From NCBI GenBank assembly GCA_000091205.1, contig AP006485.2: a stretch of DNA of 64,000 nucleotides. One strand, given 5' to 3'. Position numbers and translations under genes: made by a program. Positions 44,501-64,000 of the stretch are shown here, in pieces. The stretch is from Cyanidioschyzon merolae (Eukaryota). The notes beneath the pieces are model-generated. The model ran no database searches and was not told the origin of the DNA. It saw only the letters and a list, made by a program, of their open reading frames with translations. Every line of letters begins with the position of its first letter. The first letter of the stretch is position 1.

Positions 44501-47152
44501 AACCAGCGGCCTGCTGCGTACGCTCATCCGATGTCGCGTTTCAACATGTGAACGCGCTGGTGCCGTCAACGCTGTCGCATCGCCAGACCAACTGGTGTTG
44601 CGTATTGGATGCTGGTGCTCATAGGCGAGGCGCAACAGTGCTCCTGACGATGCGTCGGTGCTTGCGTCGACAAAGACTACTGGATAAAGGTCGTCGTGTA
44701 GGTGCTCACGCGCCTGCACAACAACATCACCCGTTTGTAGCGAGATGCACGTGCGATTGGGTGTCCTCTCCAAAAGCAGATGCAGATGTCGGAGTTGGAT
44801 GTCGGCGAAAGGCCTTCGATCTGAAAGCTGCAGGCTCATCTGGGTATCGTCGATCCGCAATTCGATGCGGAGACCTGCAGCATCTGGTTTCCACTGAATC
44901 TGCTGGAGCGTAGACTCCAAATCGGTGACTTGCTCATCCACGTGCTCCTGTACAAAGCCTTGAAAACGTTCACCGAGCTCCTGCGCCAAGCTAGCCGGCT
45001 CAACGACGATTTTGGATTCCTCGCGCTGCTCCGAGTCTAGCCGAGCAGAGCGCGCATCAGCCTGAGGCTGGTGCTCGGATGGTTGACACAAAGTGTCAGT
45101 AGTTGCGGGCCAAATCCGCTCCACTGCGGTGTGACGCTCTTCGCGAGCAGCAGGAGCAGCAGTCGACCTAGCAGTTGGCGTCGGTATTCCCGATGTGACG
45201 TCCACACCAGACGCTGAATCCTTTGTCGCAGGTGGCGCTGAGCTCCAGCCGAGTGTGGTGGAGATCCAGCCCAGCCAGCCGGTCGACGCTGTGGCCCCAG
45301 TTCGAGCTGTTTCTGCTGTCCCGCTGGCGTCTTCAGCGGAGCCAACGACTGCGGAAACAGCTCGACCTTGATCAACGATGCTGCGTTTGGTGTTCGCTCC
45401 TGGTGTATACTGAGGCCTTTCGGCGTTAGGCTGCAGTGGTGCTCGTCTGCTGGGGTCACGTTCAAGCGCCCTGTGGTATCGTTGTATTGCCAGACTCCGA
45501 AAGTAGCGGATTTCATCGATGCTTAACTGTTGCTCCAGAGCTGCGACTGCCTCTTCCAAGTCCGCTGGATCGTTGGCAAGAGAGAGTGCCAGAGCTTCCC
45601 GTGTACCAGTGGATGCTTGGGTGCGGTCATCAGTTTCCAGTTTCACTCGCGTGTAGAGCGATATGTAGCGTTCTTTGCGTCGATGCCAAGCACCAAGATC
45701 CTCGAGCACGAATGGACGATACAAACTGGATACAAATGCTCGAACACAAAGAAGCGCAAATTTCCAACGGTTTCGCGCCCTACTCGGGTGCTGCTGCTCT
45801 GTCGCCTCTAGGGCCTGGATATCGCGCGGAAGCTCTGCGGATTGCCGCTCCTCCGGAGGAGGCATCCAGTTCAGATATCGTGAGCGATAGCGATTCCCAA
45901 ACATCCACAGATAAGGTTCGGGGGCGTTCATGAGCACCAACAAGTCTGAGCGTCGTCGCCATCCCAACCAGGTTGCGTAGCTCTTCAGTGCCGTCACCGT
46001 CTCTACCTGAGACTGTTGCAGTTGCAAACACCAGCGTTCAACACCGAGACAGAGTGAGACTCTGGTGGTGCTGTCGCTCGTCGACTGGCCAGACGAATCG
46101 TGGGGCGCTTCTGTATCCGTCGCCAAGGTGCTTGGGTACGGTCGCTCTATTCGTAGTCCGACATACCCATAGCTGGGCCTGCACAAAAGAAAGGGTTCCA
46201 TGATCTTCGCGAAACGCTCATAGTGCTCCGACAAAGATTCTCCCGCTAAGGCTGTGAATGCGGCATCCGCTGGCGTCGACTGCGAGCGATGCTGGCTCCT
46301 CATTGGTGTCAGGTAGCAGGCCAGACCATGCACCCGTAACTGTCGATCGAGGATCAAGCGCATCCTGGGTGAGGTCGCGGCCTCATTCTGGGTAGGATGA
46401 TCCAGATGAGGTCGCCATTCATGACGATAATCGGGGTCTGTCGACTTATCAGAAGCAGCGGCATTGCTATCGATCAGGCTGAGTTGCCGGAGCATCAATC
46501 CGCAACTGCTCTTTCGTGTGCCTTGAGACCGCCTCCCTTCGAGCAGGTTTGTTTCCGGTTCGACAGCGATGAAGTCGACATGAATATGCACCCGTTCTAT
46601 CTGCAACTGTAGACGACGAAGCAGAAATGCAGTGGCTCTTCCAGCAAATGTCTGCAGCCAGCCGCCGTCTCGAGCGCCTCCTGTCGAGGCACCGTTGTGC
46701 TTGCTGGACGCAGGCAGCGTCTCTTGCGAGAGCTGCTGCTCTCGTGTCGCAAGTGTCCGAGCCCAAGACTCGAGACTCTGACGCTGCTCCTCGTCGTCTA
46801 GGCGGAGAAGTTCCGCTCGAGTGGTCTGAAACGAGTCAGCGTTGTTACTGGGGGCTTCACCCGGATACCAGCACAGCTCCAGGTACACGTCTGCGATGCT
46901 GATGCTGATGATTCCATTCCACCGCGCTTGGATGGATAGCGTGCCTAGGCCAGCCCGTTGGAGTTGAAGTTCTTTGATTCCGAGATCTTGACGCCAATAG
47001 CGCTCGACCGCACCGGTTTCGAGTTCGAGATCGTGAACCTCAAAGTAGCCCCGCTGCCCTAAAGCGATTAGGACTTGCTCCCGATCTAGTCCACCTCGAA
47101 TAAACGTACCGACCTTGCTCGCAAGAAATCGATACAGCGCTTCTTCGAGCAT
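36701..47152 (-). CDS. VPS13: VPS13/chorein-family bridge-like lipid transfer protein (3483 aa)
   Basis: N-terminal chorein-N motif 'MLEEALYRFLASKVGTFIRGGLDREQVLIALGQRGYFEVHDLELETGA...LGTLSIQARWNGIISISIADVYLEL' matches the VPS13/ATG2 N-terminus. Single uninterrupted 10.4-kb ORF. Low-complexity inserts include poly-Q, (GN)n, (DAA)n, (PV)n. The C-terminal region is consistent with VPS13 ATG-C/PH-like tails. Confidence 0.8.
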
Positions 47153-47199
47153 CGAATTGAGTTGGTGTCAAGCAAGTGATACGTTGCTCGACGAGTAAC

Positions 47200-47850
47200 A
47201 GAACCGGACGACGGCCACGCACCAAACGCCGTTCTGAAGCAAAACGTTGTCGCCGTCAGCGGTGGACAGTTGTGGCGAGAAACTCGCTATGGACAAGACG
47301 TCCCCAACTGACGTGCAGACGCCTCCCCGCCGGTTTGGACCGGCCACCCACAACTGATTCCAACTTTTTTTTTTAATATAGTTCCACTTTGAGCGGTTGT
47401 CCCTTAAAATTCTCTCTTGTCCACTCTGGAGGTCTTCTCTCCAGCACCGCACATCTCCTCATATTGATTGCTGCGTTCAGGTCTCGGTTCACGAACTCCA
47501 TACGTCCACTGCCTCTTGCTAAACTCATCATTGCGAGCAGTCCTGGCACTCGCGCCTTCTGTTCCACGACAGTCTTGTCACCTTCTTCTTCTGCTTGGTT
47601 CATTGCTGGTCTTCTCTCGATGGTCGACGAGAAGAGAAATTTTTCTATTTTCACCGGTACCTGGCAATGGCGGCCCTCCAGAATCCCAGACTTCCGTCTT
47701 CACACCTCTCCCTCGGTGTTTTTCCTCAAATAAACGCAATTCGACCACGTCTGCTATCAACTCGCGAGAGAGAATTTGACTACACGCACCTGGGGGTATC
47801 ACGCAATTGAGCTGAGAGATTATACCAAGCGAAAACACTCCGACACGATC
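47200..47850 (-). mobile_element. Fragment (copy C) of the Fanzor/TnpB-like element family: 3' end only, retains the RuvC-III motif
   Basis: ORF 47373..47654 (-) encodes '...MEFVNRDLNAAINMRRCAVLE...' (RuvC-III). Shares the invariant block 'ccaactgacgtgcagacgcctccccg' and 'ggaccggccacc' with copies A, B and D. About 80% identical to copy A over ~450-650 bp. Lies immediately upstream of the VPS13 start codon. Confidence 0.55.
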
Positions 47851-48222: not shown

Positions 48223-49431
48223 CTACCGCTCACGCTCAACTGATTCCAGCATTTCCGACACATATCGCCACACCGTGTTCGGATCCTGGTCGTGCGGGCA
48301 ATGACCGACAGCTTTCAGAGCAACAAATCGATCCACATGTGGATTGCGTGCAAACAGCTCTCGTCCGAGGGCGAAAGGTTCCCACGGATCACGCTCTCCC
48401 CAGAGGACCCAGATTGCGGGCGGATCTTTTCGAGCAGTTGCAGCCATCTGTGCAATGCTTTCGACGAGCTCCTCTGCCAGCGGGCCGCGATCATACGACG
48501 TGAACGCTAGAAATACATCCAGAGCACCGGGGCGCCTGCTTGGGGCCCGAATCCGCTCTACGAGCTCGGTACTGATGATCTGGTCCGCCTCAGGGCCATC
48601 AACAGCGTAGGCTGAGCAGAGTAACCTGCGGAGCGTCGCTGGCCGAGATACCAGAGAGAAGAAAAACTTCGCCACGGGACGAAATCCCAATACGCGCAAC
48701 GCTAATGGAGTCGTCCAGACGCGCAGACCCCGTCGTTTCTTATAGTGCAGCTGGCGAAGAGACGGATTCAGACACATAACTGCCCGAATACGCGTGCCCT
48801 GCATACCAGGATGCTCTACTGACTGGCGCAGCATGTCGCAAGCAGCTTGAAGTGCGGCAACACAACCGATTGAATTTGCAACGAGAACAACATCACGCTG
48901 TTGCGAAATCCCGGTATCTGACGCGGTCACCACAACAGTATTGATGAAATGAAGGATCTGCTGTGCCCAGCTTTCAAACGTGTACGAAAATGTCGGAGAG
49001 CCAACTTTGCCGTCGCCTTGCGTCGTGAACAGCGGTGGTGGCATATCAGCATCACCAAAGCCCAGCAAATCCAGCGCATACGCGTCGTAGCCCGCCTCCG
49101 AAATGATGTTGAGCATCTTCTGCCAGTGAAATGCCCCAGCACCGAAACCGTGAATGCATATCACAGCAGGCCTTGCCGGTGACGCCGGCGGAGCTGCAGG
49201 TTTCGCCCAGTACGTACAACGGAATCTTTCAAACAAGTAATCTTCTTGCCGAAAACCTGGCGGCAACGGTAGGAGCGGTTGAACACTCCTTAAACATTCC
49301 TCGAAAACACCACCTACATTCGTAGTGGGGTCAGCGCTCAAAGTAGAGTCGAAGTCACGACGGCCCGTTGCTCTCAGAGCGCTGTTCACCGAGTGCCCGT
49401 TTCCTTCATTTACGTCAGCCTTAACACCCAT
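48223..49431 (-). CDS. Alpha/beta-hydrolase fold protein (~402 aa)
   Basis: 'VICIHGFGAGAFHWQKM' (HGxG oxyanion region), 'GHCPHDQDP' (His of the triad near the C-terminus) and 'LVANSIGC' (nucleophile elbow GxSxG-like). The six-frame ORF extends to 49851, but its first 140 codons lie in the repeat element, so the start is set at Met141 (codon 49429-49431). Confidence 0.65.
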   Translation of the reverse strand: MGVKADVNEGNGHSVNSALRATGRRDFDSTLSADPTTNVGGVFEECLRSVQPLLPLPPGFRQEDYLFERFRCTYWAKPAAPPASPARPAVICIHGFGAGAFHWQKMLNIISEAGYDAYALDLLGFGDADMPPPLFTTQGDGKVGSPTFSYTFESWAQQILHFINTVVVTASDTGISQQRDVVLVANSIGCVAALQAACDMLRQSVEHPGMQGTRIRAVMCLNPSLRQLHYKKRRGLRVWTTPLALRVLGFRPVAKFFFSLVSRPATLRRLLCSAYAVDGPEADQIISTELVERIRAPSRRPGALDVFLAFTSYDRGPLAEELVESIAQMAATARKDPPAIWVLWGERDPWEPFALGRELFARNPHVDRFVALKAVGHCPHDQDPNTVWRYVSEMLESVERER

Positions 49432-49555
49432 AACGGCTCCAGTGCCTCCAGGCCGAGGGAGCTGACGCCTTCTAGCACTCAAGAGCGAGCGTCGCGGCCG
49501 TTCGTTACTTTTCGAGTGAAGCAGCACCGGTGCCAGGCGACAATGACCGAAGCGC

Positions 49556-50167
49556 TCACCCGTACAAACCTCTGAAACGTACCCTGGGTGGACACTCGCA
49601 CCAACACAAAACATCTTTCCAAAGACAAACGTTGCCCCCGGCCGTGTACAGTAGTGGCGAACGCGCCCTAGGCAAGGGGTCTCCAACTGACGTGCAGACG
49701 CCTCCCCGTTTTTTTGGACCGGCCACCAACGTCTGCTTCCATTTTTTCTCATATAGATCGACTTTGAGAGGTTGTCCAATAAAATCCTCTTGTGTCCAGT
49801 CTGGAGGTCGTTTCTCCAGCACCGCACATCTCCGTATATTGATAGCGGCATGAAAATCTCGGTTCACGAACTCCATACATTTCGTGCCGTTGGGAGCTGT
49901 ACTCACCAATACGAGTAACCCTTGAACTTTCGCCTTCCTTTCCAGTTGCTCCTCCGCCAGCGGTCCGTACTTTTGCAATTTCCTCAGCGCTCTTCTGGCA
50001 CTTTTCCATCTCCACCCTCTGAAGCGTGCAGCCCAGTTCCTGGTATGTATAGGACGTCCGGAACTCATATACAGGTATCGTAACGAGACGCCGGGCGCAC
50101 TCCTTGTACAGCTTCGTCGCTGGAGCTGGCGTAGTTCCTTTTCTGTTCTTCCAGTGCCTTGCTCCAT
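49556..50167 (-). CDS. Fanzor/TnpB-like nuclease, C-terminal segment with RuvC-III (copy A)
   Basis: '...[26 protein letters not shown]...' matches the TnpB/Fanzor RuvC-III consensus (NRDxNAAxNI) preceded by a Zn-finger Cys. The last ~20 codons read into flanking DNA beyond the repeat boundary. Confidence 0.55.
   Translation of the reverse strand: MEQGTGRTEKELRQLQRRSCTRSAPGVSLRYLYMSSGRPIHTRNWAARFRGWRWKSARRALRKLQKYGPLAEEQLERKAKVQGLLVLVSTAPNGTKCMEFVNRDFHAAINIRRCAVLEKRPPDWTQEDFIGQPLKVDLYEKKWKQTLVAGPKKRGGVCTSVGDPLPRARSPLLYTAGGNVCLWKDVLCWCECPPRVRFRGLYG
49600..49760 (-). ncRNA. Candidate omega-RNA (scaffold/guide) region at the 3' end of the copy A Fanzor-like ORF
   Basis: A nucleotide-invariant 26-mer across all four copies plus conserved 'ggaccggccacc' and 'aaacgttg' blocks, located where TnpB/Fanzor omega-RNAs map. 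Assigned by inference only. Confidence 0.15.
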
Positions 50168-50837
50168 ACGCTTCTACGAGCTTCTGACGGTCATCCTCCT
50201 TGAGGGCGCTCAACTGATTGAAACAATTCGCAAACGCCCGCTGCTTCACACCGTATAGATTCATTCGCAGACGAGCCCACCGGGGCTTTCTATACTCCTC
50301 CCACAGCGCATCCCAATGGGCAACACGAAATTCCATGAATTTCCGAAAAGCTTCACAGACCGCTCCGCGGCTCGTCGCCTCGCTCAAAGCTTCCAGGTGA
50401 TGCTTTATTCCTGCATTCCACGTAACGATTATCATCCTTGCATTCACTACAACGGATTCTCGATAGTATCTCGCTCTCGAGAACCTCAGCAGACGCATGT
50501 CTTTCTGGCGTAAATTACCGTCCATGCCATCTTCCGCACGCTTCGGTGCTGCGATGGTGATGATATTCGTGTTCCCAGGATCCGCGCCAACCACAATGTC
50601 TTTATCCTGCACTTCCTGTGTGGCAGGATCCGCCTCTTTCTTTCCTTGATGCTTCGTCGCGTCAACCATAAAGTCGTTATCCTGCACATTCTGTTCGGCA
50701 GGATCCGCCTCCTTCTGACCTTCATCCTTCACCGCGCCAACGACACGGTCGTTATCCTGCACTTTCTGCATCACAGGTTCCGCCTCTTTCTCTTTTTCAT
50801 CCTTCACCGCGTCAGCGACAAAGTCGTCATCCTGCAC
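49749..50837 (-). CDS. Fanzor/TnpB-like nuclease, central segment with RuvC-I and RuvC-II (copy A)
   Basis: '[18 protein letters not shown]' (RuvC-I, GxDPG) and '[22 protein letters not shown]' (RuvC-II Glu plus the first Zn-finger Cys). Frame shifts relative to the RuvC-III segment between ~50000 and ~49900. Confidence 0.55.
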
Positions 50838-50872
50838 CTCCTGTGTCGCAGGATCCGCTTCTTTGATTTTTT
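50575..50872. repeat. 75-bp tandem repeat (x ~4) inside the Fanzor-like ORF, copy A
   Basis: Encodes 25-aa units '[25 protein letters not shown] / [25 protein letters not shown] / [25 protein letters not shown] / [24 protein letters not shown]'. The last unit is the RuvC-I strand. Confidence 0.6.
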
Positions 50873-51182
50873 AATGCTTCGCAGAGGGCGAAGCGAAAGG
50901 CACAATCGGACGGTCCACTTTCAAGCGCCGATAGTGTACATACAAGGTTACTCCATCGGTCTCGATCAACGCAGTGAATACCTTTTGGCTTCTCACTTTG
51001 AGCCGTTTGAAATTGAAGATGTTCTTCAAGTACGTCGCCCGGTTTTCACCGGTGAAGTCATCCCTGCTAACAGTGAACACTGGACTGATCTCCTTCATGA
51101 TGCCGTAAAACACGTCCGAATCGATATTCACGAAACGTGACTTGATGCTGCACATTGGAACCACGTTGAAGCGCTTACCCAT
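50871..51182 (-). CDS. Fanzor-like nuclease, upstream segment '[21 protein letters not shown]...' (copy A)
   Basis: Identical to the copy B segment 57672..57983. Separated from the RuvC-I segment by a single in-frame TAA. Reading through in frame gives '[17 protein letters not shown]', a further unit of the internal repeat. Confidence 0.4.
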
Positions 51183-51203
51183 TAGGAAAGCCTTCCGTCT
51201 CTC

Positions 51204-51941
51204 CTACTCTTCATTTGTCTTTTCGCTCAGGTTCATCTCCGCTTCGCGTTCGAGCTCCGGGTCCAAGAACACAGAATACCGTACGACGATGCGATAGTAT
51301 CTCCCCTGATCCTTTTTCAACTCTGATATCTTTTCTGTTGGATTCACCAGCCCCAAGATTGCACGGCGCTCTTGTATAGCCGCACGGATCACAGATGCTT
51401 CATTCGTGCTCCTGCGTGACGTCTTCTTGTCGACAAATTCGACCTCATCTTCATGCTTGCGATCTTTCGTTATGCCATTGATAGTCGCCTATATTCATTT
51501 GAGAGAGCTGCCTGGGTAGAGTGCAAAAACGGCGCGTATCATGAAACGTTCGAGTTTCACGATCACGTGACTCTCCAGTTTCGTGATGTACTTCGTCGCC
51601 CCTTATATGTAAACATTCGAATCACCCCTGTATGGAGTACTGTTGAAGCTGTAGAGGGGATGTTTTTCGTAAAGGCCATGCACTAGCACATTTTCCCTCC
51701 GCGTTTCCGCTGTTCCAAGCATCAGGTATCGAATAAAGGTCTCGTCGAATAACTCGTCCAGAATCTCGACCGTTTCCATGTTCGCGACGTCTTCGTACAT
51801 CTCCCTCGCCAAATGCATCAGTCTTGACGACGCCTTGAAAATACTCTTGGAGTACGAATCGAAACGTTTTTCGATAGCGTCTCGCAACTTTTCCCTGTAC
51901 GGATCCTTGATGTGTCCAAGAAGAAAGATTTTCACCTCCAT
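51204..51941 (-). pseudogene. Disrupted N-terminal region of the copy A Fanzor-like gene
   Basis: Homologous to the continuous 252-aa ORF of copy B (57983..58741) but split into 51603..51941 and 51204..51392 by a 1-nt deletion and an in-frame TAG (tgg->tag) 7 codons upstream of the MGKRF Met. Confidence 0.4.
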
Positions 51942-52151
51942 CTCATTCTACAGTCATCTTTCCCGCCGCCTTCGACGTAGGGCCTCTCGCTTTCAGTTCT
52001 TCTTCTCTCCTGTTTCTTCTGGACTCGGCACTGCTTTTTGTTTGTCTCTAGCGGCCGGCGACCCCGGCCCTCCAGGAGCGTCGACTTGCTTTTTCATAGC
52101 TTTCCGTTTTTTAGTTTTTTCTTGAAAAACAACGCTCTGTGAACCCTTCTG

Positions 52152-52158
52152 TTATATA
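52152..52158 (-). promoter_or_regulatory. TATA-like box (TATATAA on minus strand) ~210 nt upstream of the copy A nuclease ATG
   Basis: 'gaacccttctgttatatactgcg' is conserved in copy B ('gaacccttctattatatactgcg') at the same distance. Confidence 0.2.
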
Positions 52159-52813
52159 CTGCGAAAAACACTTGACTAGACTTGTTTGAAGTTTCAAACA
52201 GAAACGAACTTAAAGCCTGTACTTGGCTACGACCTGAACGGAAATACAACTTTTTACAGATGAACAACACGCTACTGATCCCAATCGCGTTTCCCTTCAA
52301 CGAAGGCATACGCATCGTGTCAGTTGATTCCCCGATCTCCCAGATGCGATTACCGAGCGCGATGCGTGCGCCTCGCGAGACACCACGCCGATCGATGAAG
52401 GACACGTGCCTCAAGCCCATAGTGCAAAGAAACAGAGCTCGCTCGGGGGCACGCCTGCGCTATCGCTTTTGGCGCGAAACGCGAAATCGAAACCGCGCCT
52501 GCAGGGATCGTCTCGAACCGTTTCTCCTTCGCCGTGATCATCGATTGCCGCGGATTCGAGGCATGGTGCGGGGGAATTTGAATCGCTCGTGGGCTCTGTC
52601 GTTGCCGCTGCTGGACGTAAATATTTTTTTAGAGTTGGTGTTGTTCAACGGACGGCTGGGAACGGGCTCTTTCTCGTTCACGACACTAAATATTTTCCAT
52701 CAAAAGAAGTTTTATACAAAGGTTTCCAAAGTATAATATCAGGATTTGCTACGCTCATGGTATTTTTGGAGAGCAATATACGTAGAGGCCGCCCAGGAGG
52801 TCAAGGCTTTCGG

Positions 52814-53006
52814 ATGAAGCCTTCGCTATTTATTATTTGTTTCATACTTTGCAGTGTGTTCGCGTCTCTCGTACGGGCAGCGACTGTGACACCTACACCG
52901 ACTGCGACTGCGACACCGACTGCGACACCGACACCTACACCTACACCTACACCGACACCTCCATCGGCTACGACACCGACACCGACACCGACACCTCCAT
53001 CGGCTA

Positions 53007-53043
<37 letters not shown>

Positions 53044-53066
53044 TCCATCGGCTACGACTACGACTA

Positions 53067-53097
<31 letters not shown>

Positions 53098-55207
53098 TCC
53101 ATCGGCTACGACTACGACTACGACACCGACTGCGACACCGACTGCGACACCGACTGCGACACCGACTGCGACACCGACTGCGACACCGACTGCGACACCG
53201 ACTGCGACACCGACACCTACACCGACTGCGACACCGACTGCGACACCGACTGCGACACCGACTGCGACACCGACTGCGACACCGACTGCGACACCGACTG
53301 CGACACCGACTGCGACACCGACTGCGACACCGACTGCGACACCGACACCGACACCGACTGCGACACCGACTGCGACTGCGACTGCGACTGCGACTGCGAC
53401 TGCGACGGCGACTTCTACGGCAACTCCGACACCGATTGCGACGATGACTCCGACAATTACATCATCGCCAACGATTACTGTAACAGCGTCTCCAACGACA
53501 GTGACGATGACACCGACGATGACTCCAACTGCAACAACGTCACCAACAATCGTGCCGACGACGATTGCCACCTCGATTGCGATATCCGTTCAGAATCTTT
53601 CTCTTTGTTTGGCCGTGGCGACGGATTTGCAGAACGATCTCGAGGCTCGCTTCACGGGCCTGGTAGTGAATGTCAGCGTGACTGATAACTGCGACACGGT
53701 CTTCGGTTCGGGCACATCAAGGCGCCTCGCCACCACATTAGACAAGAGCAATCCTCGTCTGGAACGAGCATTGGTGCGCACGTCGGGCGGCAGTGTTGTG
53801 ACCTATGTGATTAAGATCTCAGGAGACACATCCCTCGCCAGTGATGCGCAAAGTGTGCTTCAAACTTTCACCGACCAGCTTTCTACAATTCTACCCTCTG
53901 GTGCGACACTTGCTATTATAACCCCGACACCGAGTGCAACGCCAACACCAGTTTGCACGAGTGAAATCTGCGGTTCTCCGGGCCAGTACACAAACCGGGA
54001 CGCTTGCGAGCAAGTCGGGTGCTGCTTTAACTCCCAGACGAACGCGTGCACCCTGAAGAGCGTCTCAGCGGCCTGCAGCGCTGTTCCAGTGACGCAGCGC
54101 GTCCCCTGCGGCTGGAGCTACATCTACCCCGACGAGTGCACTGCGATACCGGGATGCTGCTGGCAGCCAACGGCGAACGGCATCCTGGCACCCTGGTGCT
54201 ACTACGACATCAACCATGCACCGCAGGCCTCTGTAGCGCTGCAGGAGGTGCAGGCACCGGTTCCCCTCTGCCCGTCACCGGGAGCGCAGCGCCAGCCGTG
54301 CGGCAACGCGGGCATCAACCAGTTTACGTGCTATGCCCAGGGCTGCTGCTACGACTCGCAGGCGCAGAACCAGTGGGTGCAGAACGGCAAGCAGCAGAGC
54401 GACTTTGCGTCGAACCCGTACTGCTTCCAGCCCGAGAAGACGTGCGCGGTGGGCGAGTTTGAGCGCCAGCCGTGCACGAACGCGGTGAATCAGAACCAGC
54501 AGCTGAACAATAACATCAACAACAACCAGTTTGTGCGTCTGCTGAACACGCTTCTGTACGGAGAGCAGCACGGGACGCAGCGCACGAGCTACTCGCCGCA
54601 GCAGTGTCTGGAGGCTGGTTGCTGCCTGGGGCTCAGCAACGAGTGCTTCCAGCCGATGACCGAGTACGTGTGCCAGACCTACGGGTATGTGTCGAACTCG
54701 CTGAGCGGCACGACCGGCAACGTATCGAACTCGAGCTATATTCCGTGTGGCCCGGAGTGCTGCAACGCCGAGACGCAGAACTGCACGTACAACCCGTTCA
54801 GCAACAACAACAACCAGCAGCAGCAGCAGCAGCAGCAATTGCAACAACTGCAGCAACAACAGGTGCTGCTGCCGTCATTCTGTGTGTGCAAGGACCCTAC
54901 GAAGCAGTGCGGGACGTACCTGATCCCTTCGGATAACCTTGTGAACAAGGTGCGTTGCTGCCGCGCTGACGAGGAGTGCATCAACAACCAATGTGTGGTG
55001 ATTAGTCCAACACCGACTCCGAGTCCCGTGGCTGTGACAGCGACACCCTCTGCGACGGTGTCTGCAACAGTCTCTGCGACAGCTTCTGCGACGGTGTCTG
55101 CGAGTGCATCAACGAGTGCATCAGCGAGTGCTTCAGTTTCAGCCTCTGTGTCGACGTCTGCGAGCGCCTCGGAATCAGCGACATCTTCAGCTCCACCGAC
55201 TGCGTGA
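52814..55207 (+). CDS. Secreted mucin-like Thr/Pro-rich protein with 3-4 trefoil (P-type)-like cysteine domains
   Basis: Signal peptide '[23 protein letters not shown]'. Contains ~180 aa of (PTPTAT)n. Cys modules are '[21 protein letters not shown]', '[22 protein letters not shown]...APWCYYD' and '[22 protein letters not shown]...NPYCF', all matching the trefoil pattern RxxCGxxG..C...GCC[FWY]D..PWC[FY]. Also has a poly-Q/N tract and a Ser/Ala/Thr-rich C-terminal tail. Start taken as Met76 of the 872-aa ORF. Confidence 0.75.
52884..53440. repeat. 12-bp coding minisatellite (accgactgcgac)n encoding (PTAT/PTPT)n
   Basis: Read directly. It creates long shadow ORFs in other frames and on the opposite strand. 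Confidence 0.85.
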
Positions 55208-56355
55208 GCGAACGTTTCAACTGTTAATTTGCCCACAGTCTAGATCACGTCTATGCTGATCCTCTGTTGCGACAATATTCCACTCATGTTCACAAGACCC
55301 GAGAGTACGAATGAACGAATGCGTTAATGTGGATATTTGTGCGCGGAGTGTCATCTGAGGTCCTCTTCGGGAACTTACATTCAGAGATCTGATGAACGGA
55401 AAGAATGGACCAGAATTTGCTTTTGGAACGTAAAGGAATGATTACCTATGCCTATGAGCTTGCCCCCGATGATAGCCTTGGTGGTAATGGCGGTATCTTG
55501 GTACCCTTTCTTCTCTTTGTAGTCGGAATACGGTTTCCGAGTTGCATGTAGCGAGTATGTCTGCAGTAGAGCGTCTGGAACTGTTTTTTTAGTTTCGTTG
55601 TACTTGAGCACATTCTAGTCCTGAGGAGAGGTTCTGGAGCAAGTTTGACTCGATCCGTACAACCGCAAATTTCACCAAAATACGATTCCTCTTGAGGAAA
55701 AGCTGGTATTCGTGACGCCTGCATACGGGCTCCGGCTCCGCTTGGCACGAATGGAAGCAGGGCCGCCAGCCTCACAGCGCACTTATAGCTCTAACATTGA
55801 AAGTGCTTATAGCTTGTTCTGTCGGTCGAGGCATCCTCTCGATATATTCACCACTGTTGCCTACCGTTGCTCGTAGGCTACGTCCATAAAACCGTCTGAA
55901 GTGTTGTGCTGATTTCCGGATTATGTTTATGTCTTGTACACTAGAAAAAAACGAGAACGAAGTGGTGGTAAGCCGTGAAGACGTAGATGCGCAGTTACCG
56001 TTACTCGGTCCAGAGGCACATCATGCCAGGCAGTCACATCCTGAGACGAGCTGTACGCTATGTAAGCATTACCACAGCACCTTGAGCACAGCTGGAGGCA
56101 TTCTAGAAGCGGCCAGTATCGATTCTAAACAATTGATCTTGTTCTATATCATTGCAAACAAATTGGTAAACGGATCCGTTGCTAATAAATGGACACAGGG
56201 CCCTCGGAAGATAGATAAACGACAAGGCAGCGGATGATGTATCGAATACAGAAGAACTCGAGTTGCCCATTTTCCACATTTTCTGTCACATCAGTCCTGT
56301 TACAGCCATGGCAGCAATATCTTCACGAAAAGCATCAACTATTACCACATATACT

Positions 56356-56967
56356 CTAGGTACTCTTCGCAAATACGTTCTGAATAAGCGACGTGACGCG
56401 CCCGCACCGAACGCCTCTCAAAAGACAAACGTTGCCCCCGGCCGTGTACAGTAGTGGCGAACGCGCCCTAGGCAAGGGGTCTCCAACTGACGTGCAGACG
56501 CCTCCCCGTTTTTTTGGACCGGCCACCAACGTCTGCTTCCATTTTTTCTCATATAGTTCAACTTTGAGAGGTTGTCCAACAAAATCCTCTTGTGTCCAGT
56601 CTGGAGGTCGTTTCTCCAGCACCGCACATCTCCGTATATTGATAGCGGCATGAAAATCTCGGTTCACGAACTCCATACATTTCGTGCCGTTGGGAGCTGT
56701 ACTCACCAATACGAGTAACCCTTGAACTTTCGCCTTCCTTTCCAGTTGCTCCTCCGCCAGCGGTCCGTACTTTTGCAATTTCCTCAGCGCTCTTCTGGCA
56801 CTTTTCCATCTCCACCCTCTGAAGCGTGCAGCCCAGTTCCTGGTATGTATAGGACGTCCGGAACTCATACACAGGTATCGTAACGAGACGCCGGGCGCAC
56901 TCCTTGTGCAGCTTCGTCGCTGGAGCTGGCGTAGTTCCTTTTCTGTTCTTCCAGCGCCCTGCTCCAT
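56356..56967 (-). CDS. Fanzor/TnpB-like nuclease, C-terminal segment with RuvC-III (copy B)
   Basis: '...[20 protein letters not shown]...'. About 98% identical to the copy A segment. The C-terminal tail diverges where the ORF reads into flanking DNA. Confidence 0.5.
   Translation of the reverse strand: MEQGAGRTEKELRQLQRRSCTRSAPGVSLRYLCMSSGRPIHTRNWAARFRGWRWKSARRALRKLQKYGPLAEEQLERKAKVQGLLVLVSTAPNGTKCMEFVNRDFHAAINIRRCAVLEKRPPDWTQEDFVGQPLKVELYEKKWKQTLVAGPKKRGGVCTSVGDPLPRARSPLLYTAGGNVCLLRGVRCGRVTSLIQNVFAKST
56400..56560 (-). ncRNA. Candidate omega-RNA region at the 3' end of the copy B Fanzor-like ORF
   Basis: Same invariant blocks as copy A, but the adjacent distal segment differs ('gcaccgaacgcctctc' vs 'gcaccaacacaaaacatctttcc'). 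Confidence 0.15.
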
Positions 56968-57136
56968 ACGCTTCTACGAGCTTCTGACGGTCATCCTCCT
57001 TGAGGGCGCTCAACTGATTGAAACAATTCGCAAACGCCCGCTGCTTCACACCGTATAGATTCATTCGCAGACGAGCCCACCGGGGCTTTCTATACTCCTC
57101 CCACAGCGCATCCCAATGGGCAACACGAAATTCCAT
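56558..57136 (-). CDS. Fanzor/TnpB-like nuclease segment with RuvC-II / Zn-finger start (copy B)
   Basis: '...[32 protein letters not shown]...'. Separated from the RuvC-I segment by a private frameshift. Confidence 0.5.
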   Translation of the reverse strand: MEFRVAHWDALWEEYRKPRWARLRMNLYGVKQRAFANCFNQLSALKEDDRQKLVEAYGAGRWKNRKGTTPAPATKLHKECARRLVTIPVYEFRTSYTYQELGCTLQRVEMEKCQKSAEEIAKVRTAGGGATGKEGESSRVTRIGEYSSQRHEMYGVREPRFSCRYQYTEMCGAGETTSRLDTRGFCWTTSQS

Positions 57137-57152
57137 GAATTTCCGAAAAGCT

Positions 57153-57638
57153 TCATAAGACCGCTCCGCGGCTCGTCGCCTCGCTCAAAGCTTCCAGGTG
57201 ATGCTTTATTCCTGCATTCCACGTAACGATTATCATCCTTGCATTCACTACAACGGATTCTCGATAGTATCTCGCTCTCGAGAACCTCAGCAGACGCATG
57301 TCTTTCTGGCGTAAATTACCGTCCATGCCATCTTCCGCACGCTTCGGTGCTGCGATGGTGATGATATTCGTGTTCCCAGGATCCGCGCCAACCACAATGT
57401 CTTTATCCTGCACTTCCTGTGTGGCAGGATCCGCCTCTTTCTTTCCTTGATGCTTCGTCGCGTCAACCATAAAGTCGTTATCCTGCACATTCTGTTCGGC
57501 AGGATCCGCCTCCTTCTGACCTTCATCCTTCACCGCGCCAACGACACGGTCGTTATCCTGCACTTTCTGCATCACAGGTTCCGCCTCTTTCTCTTTTTCA
57601 TCCTTCACCGCGTCAGCGACAAAGTCGTCATCCTGCAC
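57153..57638 (-). CDS. Fanzor/TnpB-like nuclease segment with RuvC-I and the 75-bp repeats (copy B)
   Basis: '...[18 protein letters not shown]...' identical to copy A. Truncated at 'RGAVL*' by the private 1-nt insertion. Confidence 0.5.
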
Positions 57639-57671
57639 CTCCTGTGTCGCAGGATCCGCTTCTTTGATTTT

Positions 57672-57983
57672 TTAATGCTTCGCAGAGGGCGAAGCGAAAG
57701 GCACAATCGGACGGTCCACTTTCAAGCGCCGATAGTGTACATACAAGGTTACTCCATCGGTCTCGATCAACGCAGTGAATACCTTTTGGCTTCTCACTTT
57801 GAGCCGTTTGAAATTGAAGATGTTCTTCAAGTACGTCGCCCGGTTTTCACCGGTGAAGTCATCCCTGCTAACAGTGAACACTGGACTGATCTCCTTCATG
57901 ATGCCGTAAAACACGTCCGAATCGATATTCACGAAACGTGACTTGATGCTGCACATTGGAACCACGTTGAAGCGCTTACCCAT
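57672..57983 (-). CDS. Fanzor-like nuclease upstream segment 'MGKRF...' (copy B)
   Basis: 100% identical in amino-acid sequence to 50871..51182. Confidence 0.4.
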
Positions 57984-58741
57984 TAGGACAGCCTTCCGTC
58001 TCTCCCAATCTTCTTTTTTTCTTCACTCAGCTTCATCTCCGCATTTCGCTCGAGTTCTCGGTCGAGAAACATGAAATAGCGCAGAATAAGACGATAGTAT
58101 CTTTCCTTATCTTTTTTCAACTCTGATGTCTTGTCTGTTGGATTCGCCGGCCCCAAGATTGCACGGTGCTCTTGTATAACCGAATGGATTACAGAAGTAT
58201 CATTCGTGCTGTCGTTAAACGCCTTCGTGTCGACGAATTCGACTTCACCTTCATGCTTGCGATCGTTCTTGATGCCGTTGATAATCTCCCATATTCCTTT
58301 GCGAGAGATACCCGGGTACAGCGCAAACACGGCGCGTATCATGAAACGTTCGAGTTTCATTGTCAAATGGTTCGTCAGGTTCGTGAGGTTCTTCATCTCC
58401 CCATAGTCGTAAATACTCCGGTCCCCCTTGTATCGAGTACCCTCGAAGCCGTAAAAGGGATGTTTTTCGTGGAGGGCATGAACCCGCTCGTTTTCCTCCC
58501 GCGCTTCCACTGTTCCAAGCATCAGGTATCGAATAAAGGTCTCGTCGAATAACTCGTCCAGAATCTCGACCGTTTCCATGTACGTCACGTTTTCGTACAT
58601 CTCCCTCGCCAAATGCATCAGTCTTGACGACGCCTTGAAAATACCCATGGAGTACGAATCGAAACGTTTTTCGATAGCGTCTCGCAACTTTTCCCTGTAA
58701 GGATGCTTGATATGTTTAAGAAGACAGGCTTTCACCATCAT
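57983..58741 (-). CDS. Fanzor-like nuclease N-terminal domain (copy B), 252 aa continuous
   Basis: 'MMVKACLLKHIKHPYREKLRDAIEKRFDSY...'. About 80% identical to the split copy A region. Ends at a TAA overlapping the MGKRF ATG ('cTAATGg'), caused by a 1-nt loss in a poly-A run. Confidence 0.5.
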   Translation of the reverse strand: MMVKACLLKHIKHPYREKLRDAIEKRFDSYSMGIFKASSRLMHLAREMYENVTYMETVEILDELFDETFIRYLMLGTVEAREENERVHALHEKHPFYGFEGTRYKGDRSIYDYGEMKNLTNLTNHLTMKLERFMIRAVFALYPGISRKGIWEIINGIKNDRKHEGEVEFVDTKAFNDSTNDTSVIHSVIQEHRAILGPANPTDKTSELKKDKERYYRLILRYFMFLDRELERNAEMKLSEEKKKIGRDGRLS

Positions 58742-58951
58742 CTCGTCGTACAGTCGTCTTTCTTGCCGCCTTCGACCTAGGGCCTCCCCCGTCGGTCCTT
58801 CTTCTCTCCTGTTTCTTCTGGACTAGGCACTGTTTTTTGTTTTTATTTCTGGCAGCAGGCGACCCTGGACCTACGGAATCGTCGACTTGCTTTTTCATAG
58901 CTTTTCTTTTCATTTTTTTTGTGTGAAAAAGAACGCTCCTTGAACCCTTCT

Positions 58952-58958
58952 ATTATAT
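58952..58958 (-). promoter_or_regulatory. TATA-like box upstream of the copy B nuclease ATG
   Basis: Conserved with copy A at the same spacing (~211 nt). Confidence 0.2.
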
Positions 58959-60209
58959 ACTGCGAGAAATCAATTGAATATGTTTACTTGAGGGTTGAGA
59001 CACAATCGAACTGGAAACTATGATTTGTTACGACTTCCACGCAAATACAGCTTGCCCGTTAGAACATCAAGAAAACGTGTCGTCACGGTCGCGTTTCTCT
59101 TCAAAGGCGACAGATGCGTCGTGTCTCGTAAGTGCCATACTTGGAGATGCACGTATCAAGCGCGCCATACAGGAAAAAGGACAGTGACCTACGATTTACA
59201 AGAAACGATATAAAATTTTTTCCCGCTCTACGATAAGCGTTTAAGGGGAAACAGATCGCCGTATTATCGGAAGCTTATGTTCGAGGCGGTAGGTCCCGCG
59301 AGCCGGTCGAGTCTACCGGGCTAGAGCTCGGTATCCCTCTTAAGTGGCTGCTGCCGCTGCTGCTGCTGCTGCTGCAAGACCTGCGCAGCTCGTTCACAAC
59401 GCATTTTATCCTGAGACTATGCACAGGATGCTGCGTTGGGCCTCGCCCTGGTCGCAGTGGAACCCTAGTATAGCGCTTCGCGCTGCCGTAGGTAGTGGGT
59501 CTGTCTGCCCATTTTGCATGTTTCCAGAATGACAAATAGCCCTGATTCCGTTTCAGGTGAATCATCCTCCCAGAGGACGCCCTTATTGGTATGGCAAAGC
59601 CGTTCTGTCTCTGTACAGCACCTGCTTGAGCGGTATAAGCGCAACAGCGGGTGCTCACAACAGGCTCGGCGCTCGATAGAACATACGAAACGACCAGTGT
59701 ATCAGAGAGGAAGTATGGGTAATGGGACTTGAGGACAGGTGCACTATGACAGTGATATCCCCGGAAGCCATTATCCGTTCCGAATTCTGGGATCCATGGG
59801 CAATGTAAACGTTTTTTCATCAAAAAGAAAAAACGCCCCGAGGCGGACTCGTCATCGAGACGCACATCCCTCTGGATCGAATCTCCGGAAGGCGCTTCTG
59901 GGCGATCGCAAAAGCCCTCAAGTGCATCTTTGTATTCTCAACGGATAGCATGCTTTATTCGGAGCGCTCAGTCTCGAGCGTTCCCTCTAACTTTAAGCAA
60001 TAGCTTCGTAGATCAGACAGCTGTGTTGTCAAAGAGCACTGTACCTAGTTTTGGCGAGGTCTATAGTGCTGGAGAACAAAACGATCACGGGTTTGTAGCG
60101 ATCTCGGCACCAGTGCTAGAAACAACCCTGCACTGGAGCTCGTGCGATCTAAAACCTGTAGTCGGACTTTTTAGAAGATCTGTCTGGCAAGGAAACAAAT
60201 CGTGGAACT

Positions 60210-62399: not shown

Positions 62400-64000
62400 G
62401 ACCGAAACGTCTCGTAAGACCACCGCACCCGACGACAACAAACATCTTTCGAAACAAAAACGTTGCTGCCGGCAGTAGACAGTACTGGCGAGAAACTCGC
62501 CCTAGACAAGAAGTCGCCAACTGACGTGCAGACGCCTCCCCGTCTTTTCCGCCCGGCCACCTACTGTGGGTACCATTTGTTCTTATATAGTTCCAGTTTA
62601 AGAGGTTGTCCAACAATGGACTCTCGTGTCACCGCTGGGAGCTTTTTGTCTATTCCCGCACATCTCCGTAGATTGATTGCAGCGTTAAAGACTCGGTTCG
62701 CGAACTCCATACGTTTCTTGCGGTTGACAGTCGTACTTACTAATGCAAGTAGTCCACGAGCTTCTCCCCTCCTTTCCATTTCCTCTCCCGTCAGCTGTCC
62801 CTTACTTTTTTATATCATCAGGACTCCACTGGCACTTTTCCATCTCCATCTTCTGAAGAGTACATCCCAACTCGTGGTGTGTATACGATGTTCGGAACTC
62901 ACCCACAGGTACCGTAGCGAGACCCAGTGCGCACTCCTTGCCCATTCCTGCCGTTGGAGCTGGTGGAGTCCCTTTTTTTCGGAGCCCAGCTCCCTACACC
63001 ATATGTAACAACGAGCCTCTGACTTGATCCTATTTCAAGGCGTTCAATCGATTGAAAAAGCTCGCGAATGCGTGATGCTTACCACGGCACAGATTCATAC
63101 GCAAACGTGCCCAGCGGTGCTTTGTATACTCGCCCTACAGCGCCACGGAATGAGCAACCCCAACTTCCAAAAATTTCAGAAAAGCTTGAATGTCCGCTCA
63201 TCGGCTCGTCACCACGCTCAAAGCCTCCAGGTGATCCTTCATTCCTACATTCCACGTAACGATCTTCTTCCTTGCATTCATTATACCGGATTCTCGATAG
63301 TATCTCTCTCTCTCGAAAACCTCAGCAGAAGCATATGTTTGTGGCGTAAGGTGCCGTCAGTGCAATCTTCCCTTCGCTTGTGAACAGCGATGGTTATGAG
63401 ATTCGTGCTCCAGGGACTAAGGCCGACGCCAAAGTGGTTTTCATGGGGCTTATACGTTCCATAGCCCGTCAACCTGTGTTCGTTCTTCGGCAAGGGCCGT
63501 AAAGAAAACGGGATAGGACGAGCTGCCTTCAACCGCTGATGGTGTACACATATGTGCGCCACATCGAGATCGATTGTTCCAGTGAATAACCTTTTTTTGG
63601 CCGGTTCGGGACACTTGAAATCGAAGATATTCTTCTCGTAGGCGTCCCGATCTTCACCGGAGACCTATTTGTTGATTACATCGAGCTATGGATAGATCTC
63701 TATCCTGAAGATGCAAAAGGACTATGGGGTCAATATACACAAAATGTGACTTGAACGCGCATAACCGACCGACATTGAAGCGCATCTGGAGAAGACTTCA
63801 ATGTCGTTTCTCGCACTCGTCTTTTTTTCCACACTCAGCTCCATGCCGACCCTGCGATCGAGGTCTCGGACCGAAAACATGAAGCAGGGCAGGATAAGAG
63901 AGTAACAACTCTCTCCGTCGTTTCTCATATCCGAGAGTTTTCTCTTGGGTTGACATGACCCAAGACCGAACGATGTTTTAGAATAGTCGCGCGAATTACA
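62400..64000 (-). mobile_element. Degenerate copy D of the Fanzor/TnpB-like element (continues past the window end)
   Basis: About 75% identical to copy A from the 3' end through the RuvC-I region and beyond (63600-63960 aligns to A 50990-51260). The RuvC-I Asp is lost ('GLSPWSTNLITIAV') and the RuvC-III Asp is replaced ('MEFANRVFNAAINL'). The invariant 26-mer is nevertheless 100% retained. Confidence 0.5.

Follow-up and report, generated by a model that had tools for sequence, protein, structure and literature searches.

Two neighbouring Fanzor1 pseudogenes of Cyanidioschyzon merolae probably share their lesioned 3' half through ectopic gene conversion

The window analysed here, a stretch of 64,000 nucleotides from Cyanidioschyzon merolae contig AP006485.2, holds two elements of ~2.8 kb, A and B, in which Fanzor1 is the sole gene. 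They lie in direct orientation, 6.8 kb apart, with 3.9 kb between them; that spacer and both flanks are unique sequence, and self-BLAST of the window revealed nothing beyond the element that the two loci have in common, their flanks being unrelated. Terminal inverted repeats were looked for in both elements and none was found. The 5' limit of each element was placed where family homology begins, ~420-470 nt upstream of the ATG. Neighbouring host genes in the window include Tic22 and Pex16, and a PDI is 76% identical to that of Cyanidiococcus, 55% to that of Cyanidium and 99% to a protein cluster. The anatomy of the two elements, all on the minus strand, is as follows.

49597-52408, minus: copy A, whole Fanzor1 element (self-BLAST; 3' end by family alignment, 5' boundary approximate)
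56397-59150, minus: copy B, whole Fanzor1 element (5' boundary approximate)
49739-51941, minus: Fanzor1 coding remnant of copy A, running from ATG 51941 to roughly LKVDLYEKK (three-frame translation)
56539-58741, minus: copy B Fanzor1 coding remnant, starting at ATG 58741
A 50508-50880 and B 57309-57681, minus: 75-nt (25-residue, acidic) tandem repeats, directly upstream of RuvC-I
A 50568-50585 and B 57369-57386, minus: RuvC-I motif ADPGNT, aligned with DPGR of PpFz1
A 50052-50069 and B 56852-56869, minus: RuvC-II motif YEFRTS (alignment to PpFz1)
A 49835-49864 and B 56635-56664, minus: RuvC-III motif of 10 residues (alignment to PpFz1)
A 49597-49770 and B 56397-56570, minus: 3' tail beyond the conserved protein end, a candidate omegaRNA (fRNA) scaffold by analogy

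A and B are pseudogene members of a Fanzor1 (eukaryotic TnpB-like, RuvC) family. A shallow profile and Pfam alone returned nothing, or sub-threshold matches to PF07282 only, while a profile built from 43 diverse relatives and compared with PDB sequences retrieved PpFz1 (E = 3.2e-20), SpuFz1 (2.5e-10) and GtFz1 (7e-6), with the DPG, EFRT and NRD motifs of the profile lining up with those of the Fanzor1 structures. In the relatives the order is D (RuvC-I), E (RuvC-II) and RD..NAA.NI (RuvC-III); D484, E656 and R724-D725-N727-A729-N731 are invariant across all 43, and the RuvC codons are kept in A and B. As a stand-in for modelling we took P0001, an intact relative that shares 68% identity with the stitched A/B protein. 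Its AF2 model has a pLDDT of 80.6, and the Foldseek hits ranked 1-7 in the PDB are all Fanzor1 (SpuFz, E 6e-17, TM normalised to the target 0.71); the acidic 25-residue tandem repeats appear disordered in the structure model. On these grounds the intact family protein is predicted to be a eukaryotic TnpB-like, RuvC-type nuclease and, by analogy with characterised Fanzor1 enzymes, would be guided by RNA from the element 3' end. The family matches CMe-1A or a close relative's counterpart, the match being one of description and not of consensus sequence.

Two further pieces of the family, absent from the original prediction, were found in the window.

62413-64000, minus: copy C, a decayed third copy (~77% identity), interrupted by the window end
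47210-47505, minus: fragment D, a 3'-end-only remnant running from RuvC-III to the element end

Copy C carries 6 stops and 11 frame-breaking indels. An ORF of 3483 residues has its ATG ~60 nt downstream of fragment D.

The coding remnants of A and B are broken at two common positions and at several private ones.

A 50871-50873 and B 57672-57674, minus: shared nonsense codon TAA, where the family has GAA
A 49971-49974 and B 56771-56774, minus: shared +1 frameshift, one A too many, A4 here as against A3 in the family (GCAAAAGTAC vs GCAAAGTAC)
51603-51605, minus: TAA stop private to A, at a codon for Tyr in B and in the intact relative L001
51489-51497, minus: A-private stops TGA (51495-51497) and TAG (51489-51491)
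51204-51206, minus: A-private TAG for Trp (TGG in B and in L001)
58014-58020, minus: loss of one base from an A7 run (-1 frameshift), private to B, at a slippage hot spot of the family
57158, minus: B-private +1 insertion of T, at the edge of a sub-tract that is 100% identical between A and B

Both shared features were as originally described: reading through the in-frame TAA resumes the repeat motif (17 residues), and the frame change between RuvC-II and RuvC-III is accounted for by the extra A, which lies inside a GCAAAG run. The original prediction had left room for these being an unrecognised intron, a programmed frameshift or stop read-through, and had proposed a comparison with paralogues. 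In that comparison the codon changed from GAA to TAA in A and B reads GAA, GCA or GGA in 48 of 48 other members of the family, the extra A is carried by 0 of ~76 other copies, and L001, the one intact copy found, recovered on a metagenome contig from a related organism, runs through both sites as a single uninterrupted ORF. That A and/or B are coding, with the stop and the frame change acting as functional recoding (read-through, programmed frameshifting, slippage) or a very short intron, might be argued from the presence of both features in two copies, from the position of the frameshift inside a short A run, and from another +1 in copy C just 3-5 nt away. However, neither feature recurs in the family, the intact relative has one ORF, further breaks occur in both copies (four stops in A, two frameshifts in B), and the +1 of copy C is a separate event, its 11 frame-breaking indels giving a chance of ~8% of one within +/-6 nt. 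We therefore regard recoding as very improbable. A and B share the two features only because the whole tract in which these lie is 99.4% identical, and the two lesions are simple mutations, such as accumulate when a mobile element decays. Active copies elsewhere, also raised in the original prediction, are plausible, keeping in mind that the intact copy lies on a metagenome contig from a related organism.

Codon alignment against L001 counted six lesions in A, five of them in-frame stops and the other the +1 frameshift, and in B three frameshifts beside one stop; six of these ten lesions are substitutions. For the private lesions the original prediction stood in part. In copy A, the TAG replacing Trp before MGKRF is present, but the 1-nt deletion reported in the N-terminal domain is not, as A holds one frame from ATG 51941 to the shared frameshift; on the 5' side, A and B differ in length only at A 51989 and 52044, both in the leader that precedes the ATG. 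In copy B, the extra T lies at 57158 and a base has indeed been lost, from the A7 run at 58014-58020 rather than from an A8 run at ~57990. The three A-private stops at 51603-51605, 51495-51497 and 51489-51491 had been overlooked. With 6 lesions in A and 4 in B, neither copy is predicted to be able to make Fanzor1 protein. Among the full-length copies in 81 loci one is intact and most others have several lesions; pseudogenes are the rule in this Fanzor1 family.

Assembly error, which the original prediction had named as what would overturn it, is contradicted for at least copy A by independent metagenome contigs that carry the same TAA and extra A. Contigs assembled from different samples, five at JGI and two at ENA, match copy A at 98.5-99.9% identity and reproduce its TAA, its private stops and its mosaic junction; the ORF of 103 residues that ends at the TAA is present on five independent JGI contigs, one JGI contig covers 52114-49725 and so crosses the 5' boundary of the near-identical tract, and the extra A is also seen in L082 and L086, the two contigs that reach its site. 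In exact-ORF look-ups copy B was not found in independent assemblies, so that its private lesions rest on the window. This lack of an independent counterpart for B, together with the position of three of the four indel lesions in or beside homopolymer runs and the breaking of independent contigs within the identical tract, which marks the repeat as hard to assemble, is what would speak for the mosaic and the lesions being artefacts of assembly or polishing (a collapsed or chimeric repeat, homopolymer errors). Set against the contigs that agree with copy A, and against the substitutions that make up six of the ten lesions, such an origin appears improbable.

Two contig observations bear on the history of the tract. 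Over a patch of 52 nt (A 50224-50173), the A of the window is unlike three independent copy-A contigs and the same as the B of the window. Contig L084, which keeps the frame at the A run and 5' of ~49875 matches A/B at ~80%, looks like an unconverted copy A; as its junction falls within the block of highest conservation, it may be a metagenome chimera.

The mosaic identity first noted between A and B was borne out: 98.8% over 1625 nt (A 51240-49616), falling to 82.3% in the N-terminal part of the ORF (51940-51241) and to 77.6% in the leader (52230-51941). A list of the differences delimits the tract more closely.

49621-51187, minus: proposed conversion tract of A, 1567 nt with 99.4% identity to B
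56421-57988, minus: proposed conversion tract of B
50358-51187, minus: sub-tract of 830 nt in A, 100% identical

There are 9 differences in the 1567-nt tract as against 198 in the 1043 nt 5' of it (Fisher p = 2e-71), where identity is 81%, and the last ~24 nt of the element hold 9 differences (p = 3e-13 compared with the tract). The tract edges are sharp and the homologous sequence on both sides is 20-35% diverged; within the tract, all 9 differences fall in its 3' 738 nt (non-uniform, p = 0.001). The divergence of A from B in the 5' kilobase equals that of either copy from unrelated family members. Direct orientation at a distance of 6.8 kb could bring to mind a block duplication, tandem or segmental, that took in the 3' half, but we give this almost no credence, as the loci are alike only within the element, the 3.9-kb spacer and the flanks are unique, and the 5' kilobase of the element is diverged as much as between unrelated family members.

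An internal, near-identical tract with sharp edges and diverged homologous flanks agrees with the suggestion, made in the original prediction, of gene conversion of an already-lesioned 3' half, and ectopic gene conversion of such a segment between A and B, both of them dead Fanzor1-only elements, is in our judgement the probable explanation. A and B would have started as separate insertions of family members ~80% identical, and later the internal 1.57-kb tract would have been copied between them by ectopic (non-allelic) conversion, with a second event or patchy repair leaving 830 nt perfectly identical. The donor tract would already have borne the GAA-to-TAA change and the 1-nt A insertion, which is why both copies show the two. 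Private lesions would have accrued in the unconverted 5' part, four stops in A and the -1 in the poly-A run of B, and the T at 57158 in B may have arisen after conversion or at its edge. We infer the mechanism of conversion, in which either copy may have been the donor, and likewise the role of RNA.

Alternatively, the tract could in principle have passed between source elements before either was inserted. In a fuller version of this scenario, A and B were each copied, mobilised in trans, from recombinant, lesioned sources with a common 3' half, and no conversion took place in situ. It gains from the 3' ends of the family being mosaics of subfamily features, from the non-autonomous propagation assumed for the family (PMC3627910), and from the conversion mechanism being one that we infer rather than see. 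Yet identity would reach the terminus because of the shared source; instead, the tract ends ~24 nt short of the 3' terminus, with 9 differences there. Further, no sequence more than 82% identical to the tract was present in the 81 related loci, A and B are neighbours in direct orientation, and a small patch within the tract varies between strains. We consider recombinant sources unlikely and retain ectopic conversion between the two resident copies.

The 3' tail is common to all copies; the frame in which it can be read varies from copy to copy, and no stop is conserved in it. Its conservation is no higher than that of the ORF, RNAalifold returned no structure for it, covariation analysis gave pair counts not above those of shuffles, and no Rfam match was obtained. 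On folding, a long-range stem of the tails of other copies is broken in A and B. Of 40 informative loci, 30 have a same-strand ORF as the first one downstream, mostly no more than 150 nt away; at A, D and related loci the element 3' end lies directly upstream of a host gene start codon in the same orientation, and 3'-end-only fragments persist among the loci. That these 3' ends have a life of their own, either because red-algal Fanzor1 elements home to or are retained at gene 5' ends or because their 3' ends (putative omegaRNA or promoter) were co-opted, with local conversion keeping neighbours alike, is a doubtful but conceivable reading.

The description of CMe-1A in C. merolae (Bao & Jurka 2013, Mob DNA 4:12, PMC3627910) is of ~150 copies of ~3 kb, ~80% identical to the consensus, some of them intact, with no terminal inverted repeats, no recognisable target site duplications and a Fanzor1 protein only. 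The A/B family resembles it in size (~2.8 kb vs ~3 kb), Fanzor1-only content, lack of terminal inverted repeats and of recognisable target site duplications, and a host of the Cyanidioschyzon clade; copies here are 75-90% identical to one another, and in both most copies are decayed and few intact. Gene conversion between copies, proposed here for A and B, is not described for CMe-1A (PMC3627910).

With SpuFz1, PpFz1 and GtFz1 (PMC10432273; PDB 8gkh, 9cf0, 9cer) the family shares profile homology, full-length fold and motif order at a sequence identity of only 12-15%, and its element likewise runs on past the conserved protein end, where Fanzor omegaRNAs are encoded, the omegaRNA here being putative. 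It differs in that no CxxC...CxxC zinc finger is clearly present between the RuvC-II and RuvC-III motifs, and in the acidic 25-residue tandem-repeat insert before RuvC-I; and whereas those three are characterised RNA-guided nucleases, A and B are pseudogenes. Fanzor 'ghost loci' have the omegaRNA present and the protein absent (Saito et al. 2023, PMC10432273). Fragment D and L055:1103-1360, which retain only the element 3' end, recall such loci. Ghost loci lack the protein, however, while fragment D still has a RuvC-III coding remnant and, for that reason, may simply be a 5'-truncated copy.

Ectopic gene conversion is known between dispersed repeats and copies of transposable elements, for example yeast Ty and primate Alu and L1. 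It is an established process in those systems, whereas the case of A and B is read from sequence. A and B have in common with it a sharp-edged, near-identical tract within diverged paralogues, nearby copies in direct orientation, and lesions carried along with the tract.

Self-BLAST of the window resolved a single repeat family into four minus-strand pieces in the region:

47210-47505, minus strand, fragment D, the element 3′ end alone (RuvC-III through terminus)
~49597-52408, minus strand, copy A
~56397-59150, minus strand, copy B
62413 to the window end, minus strand, copy C, badly degraded, with ~77% identity to A and B

In the same self-comparison no sequence beyond the element was common to the loci. 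The element measures ~2.8 kb, with family homology beginning 420-470 nt upstream of the ATG; family copies are 75-90% identical to each other, and examination of the termini revealed no inverted repeat linking them. Between A and B lies a large plus-strand ORF (52589-55207) of Thr/Pro and Ala/Thr repeats; its C-terminal half is rich in Cys, and it also contains poly-Q/N runs. Its 12-nt repeats dominate the repeat report of the region, and its product may be a mucin-like surface protein. The window as a whole has 55% G+C and long intron-free ORFs, including Tic22, Pex16, PDI and RCC1 genes. The encoded PDI shares 99% identity with an environmental cluster, 76% with Cyanidiococcus yangmingshanensis and 55% with Cyanidium caldarium. 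The host belongs to the Cyanidioschyzon clade of red algae. Exact-protein look-ups of this PDI and of an LDH/MDH-like gene returned no match.

Three-frame translation of A and B yielded a protein of the TnpB/Fanzor type, arranged as an N-terminal helical part, 25-aa acidic tandem repeats, RuvC-I, RuvC-II (VYEFRTS) and RuvC-III. A database search recovered 36 close relatives, all from JGI metagenomes, among them P0001 (752 aa), the product of the metagenome locus L001, aligning with 97% of the stitched A/B protein at 68% identity; among 1.8 billion representatives, a profile search recovered 1369 relatives. Pfam gave no significant family for either the stitched protein or P0001, just a sub-threshold PF07282. 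With a shallow 19-sequence profile the PDB sequence search found no match, and AF2 with the same shallow alignment produced an unusable model (pLDDT 32), but both succeeded with 43 diverse relatives from the representative search. In the alignment of these 43 full-length sequences, D484, E656 and R724-D725-N727-A729-N731 are invariant, and the profile matched the Fanzor1 structures of Parasitella (E = 3e-20), Spizellomyces (E = 2.5e-10) and Guillardia (E = 7e-6), with the catalytic motifs aligned in all three. Further, the AlphaFold model of P0001 built on the same relatives was confident (pLDDT 80.6), and its best seven Foldseek PDB matches were all Fanzor1 (E down to 6e-17, TM 0.71), with Cas12 and Fanzor2 ranking far below. 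On the basis of these profile and structural matches, the A/B gene family is Fanzor1.

Several features of the coding region were observed alongside. The 75-nt (25-aa, acidic) tandem repeats lie directly before RuvC-I (50508-50880 in A, 57309-57681 in B), the last unit continuing into the VVGADPG strand; their number differs among family members (none in C, two in the relative P0003, six or more in P0008), with disorder predicted for this part of the protein (P0001 residues 385-470). Conservation also extends over roughly 150 nt ahead of the first ATG (window 51995-52100; L001:5930-6095). In L001 this stretch stays open in the frame of the ORF, its translation (…PSPEEKEEKKNRKGDALRRRRQERQLYDEM…) being basic and NLS-like, and an upstream ATG (MKKQ[VI]D…) lies out of frame in L001 and B and in frame in A.

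Counted against the reading frame of L001, the two copies carry the following lesions, all on the minus strand:

A, 51603-51605, stop TAA, private
A, 51495-51497, stop TGA, private
A, 51489-51491, stop TAG, private
A, 51204-51206, stop TAG, Trp in B and L001
A, 50871-50873, shared TAA
A, 49971-49974, shared +1
B, 58014-58020, -1 in an A7 run
B, 57672-57674, shared TAA
B, 57158, +1 T
B, 56771-56774, shared +1

The stop and the frame change that the original prediction had placed in both copies are thus present, as are the TAG that replaces Trp in A alone and the B insertion noted at ~57150. Three of A's stops had been missed, and the 1-nt deletion proposed for its N-terminal domain does not exist in A's ORF. 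The loss of one base from an A run in B was also real, although the run is A7 at 58014-58020 and not A8 at ~57990. At this site AGACAAA has turned into a pure A run in many family members, and frameshifts at codons 240-242 were found in about 28 copies. Because the segment length is scattered among copies with the pure A run (52 to 56 nt), the site (window 58010-58024; L001 codon ~241) is a hot spot for slippage. L001 is the only full-length copy free of lesions, most others having several; decay is the norm in this Fanzor1 family.

It had been suggested that the two shared lesions might be real features, such as an intron, a programmed frameshift or stop read-through, and we compared them with 80 related metagenome loci and L001. 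Where A and B read AAG CAT TAA AAA, L001 reads AAG CAT GAA GAA, and each of the 48 further copies spanning this codon has GAA, GCA or GGA in place of the stop. At the frame change, A and B have GAAATTGCAAAAGTACGG, whereas L001 has GAAATAGC-AAAGTACGG, which translates as EEIAKYGPLTEEQ in one frame. Of ~76 other copies, two are one base shorter in the corresponding 32-nt segment; all the rest keep the in-frame length, and none is longer. From these lengths and the single frame of L001, the frame change comes down to one inserted A (A 49971-49974 / B 56771-56774). An intron is ruled out, as the contiguous ORF of the intact relative differs by just one base, and so is a slippery site used by the family, since none of the ~76 other copies has the extra A. 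With both lesions missing from the other family copies and from intact L001, the notion that they are functional features is wrong. Copy C has its own +1 (window 62770-62790), 3-5 nt from the A/B insertion; it is a separate event (GTAAGGGAC vs. GTACGGAC), and given 11 frame-breaking indels in 1.6 kb of C, the chance of one falling within 6 nt is ~8%.

The mosaic identity that had been noted between A and B proved to be sharply bounded. Between 52230 and 51188 the two copies disagree at 198 of 1043 positions, between 51187 and 49621 at 9 of 1567 (eight substitutions and the additional T of B), and over the last 24 element positions (49620-49597) at 9, the contrast of the tract (A 51187-49621 / B 56421-57988) with its neighbours having p = 2e-71 and 3e-13. 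In the 5′ kilobase, A-B divergence equals that of either copy from L001, which argues that A and B are ordinary family members inserted separately. A shared source element would have left identity up to the terminus, and in the last 24 positions A and B each resemble a different subfamily terminus. Segmental duplication was rejected, as it would reach into the flanks, and those of A and B are unrelated. A near-identical tract inside a homologous region, with diverged homologous sequence on either side, argues instead for ectopic gene conversion, in which an already-lesioned segment would have been copied between the separately inserted A and B. Of the two alternatives raised originally, conversion of an already-lesioned half is the one supported, and the TAA and the extra A, both inside the tract, are common by descent through it. 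All nine tract differences fall in its 3′ 738 nt (p = 0.001) and 830 nt are perfectly identical, which points to patchy repair or to a second event of more recent date. For the 5′ halves as for the tract, the best relatives reach just 82-91% identity and do not settle the donor direction. Conversion between repeats is a well-known process; keeping in mind that a converted tract carries its lesions along, lesions common to neighbouring paralogues need be neither ancient nor functional, and a family-wide comparison offers a quick settlement of such questions.

Assembly error, the remaining source considered for the lesions, does not explain copy A. Its exact 103-aa ORF ending at the TAA was found on five JGI contigs, all five representing copy A (98.5-99.9% identity), one of which, covering 52114-49725, extends across the tract's 5′ boundary. 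From 50488 downstream, two ENA contigs match the window at 99.4% identity, extra A included, and the exact hydrolase protein occurs on nine contigs from other samples. As independent contigs reproduce them, neither the lesions nor the chimeric structure of A can be put down to errors in the present assembly; exact look-ups with three B-specific ORFs did not find copy B in independent assemblies. In a 52-nt patch (A 50224-50173), three of the independent contigs have 6-7 differences while A and B of the window are the same, as expected if the lineage of the window underwent one more small conversion. Another JGI contig, L084, has the same flank as A, is ~80% like A/B from ~49875 upstream, is in frame at the A run and shows at most 88% identity to any other known copy. 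It may be an unconverted haplotype, in which case B would be the donor, or it may be a chimera with its junction inside the conserved RuvC-III block.

Beyond about LKVELYEKK the copies are open in differing frames, and the position of the stop varies: about 80 copies include 21 that end at codon 715, L001 ends at 722, and in A and B the frame runs on to 49556/56356. Codon 715 of L001, the Trp715 codon (PPE*TRENF in the copies that stop there), is equivalent to ~49795-49797 in A. The functional end of the protein is probably near its conserved end, and a non-protein role would fit the 3′ tail beyond. Characterised Fanzor1 systems encode their guide RNA at the element 3′ end. Here the tail is no more conserved than the ORF, and conservation stays level from one end of the element to the other. 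Given 45 sequences, RNAalifold predicted no structure in the tail, and Rfam held no relevant match. Neither in a ribosum-scored consensus nor in a hand-built long-range stem plus hairpin did pairing or covariation exceed that of shuffles. A 7-9-bp long-range stem (CAGUAGUGG/CCACUACUG) is found in most copies and is broken in A and B (CAGACGUUGG). Single-fold z-scores were mixed (A 0.05, B -0.9, C -2.7, L010, a related locus, -3.9), and the A and B folds, no more stable than shuffled sequence, agree with a tract that would be dead at the RNA level too.

In a crude count on raw ORFs at 41 non-redundant related loci, 40 of them with a downstream ORF of at least 120 aa, the first such ORF shared the element's strand at 30 loci and had the reverse orientation at 10; 23 of the 30 begin no more than about 150 nt from the element 3′ end. 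The elements tend to lie directly ahead of a co-oriented host gene. In the window, ~60 nt separate the end of D from the ATG of a 3483-aa ATG2-like ORF, and the alpha/beta-hydrolase ATG is 166 nt downstream of the end of A; the two placement sites are 47152-47505 and 49431-49597. At least one intact family member, L001/P0001, comes from what seems to be a hot-spring red alga; P0001, which has a confident Fanzor1-like model, could serve as a candidate in a search for Fanzor nucleases of thermo-acidophilic eukaryotes.

Two remnants consist of the 3′ end only, namely D and L055:1103-1360, in which ~130 nt of the 3′ tail follow unrelated sequence. Both are reminiscent of the Fanzor 'ghost loci' of Saito et al. 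2023, in which the omegaRNA lacks its protein, and may be no more than truncated copies. Bao & Jurka 2013 (PMC3627910) described CMe-1A, a Fanzor1 element of C. merolae with about 150 copies, each ~80% identical to a ~3-kb consensus, without TIRs, with TSDs that were not determinable and with some copies still intact. Compared by description only, the window element agrees with CMe-1A in its ~2.8-kb length, lack of TIRs and 75-90% inter-copy identity. Copies A and B are Fanzor1 transposon pseudogenes, probably of the family described in 2013, and Fanzor1 (CMe-1A-like) transposon pseudogenes is the proper annotation for the region, rather than a gene with an intron or recoding.
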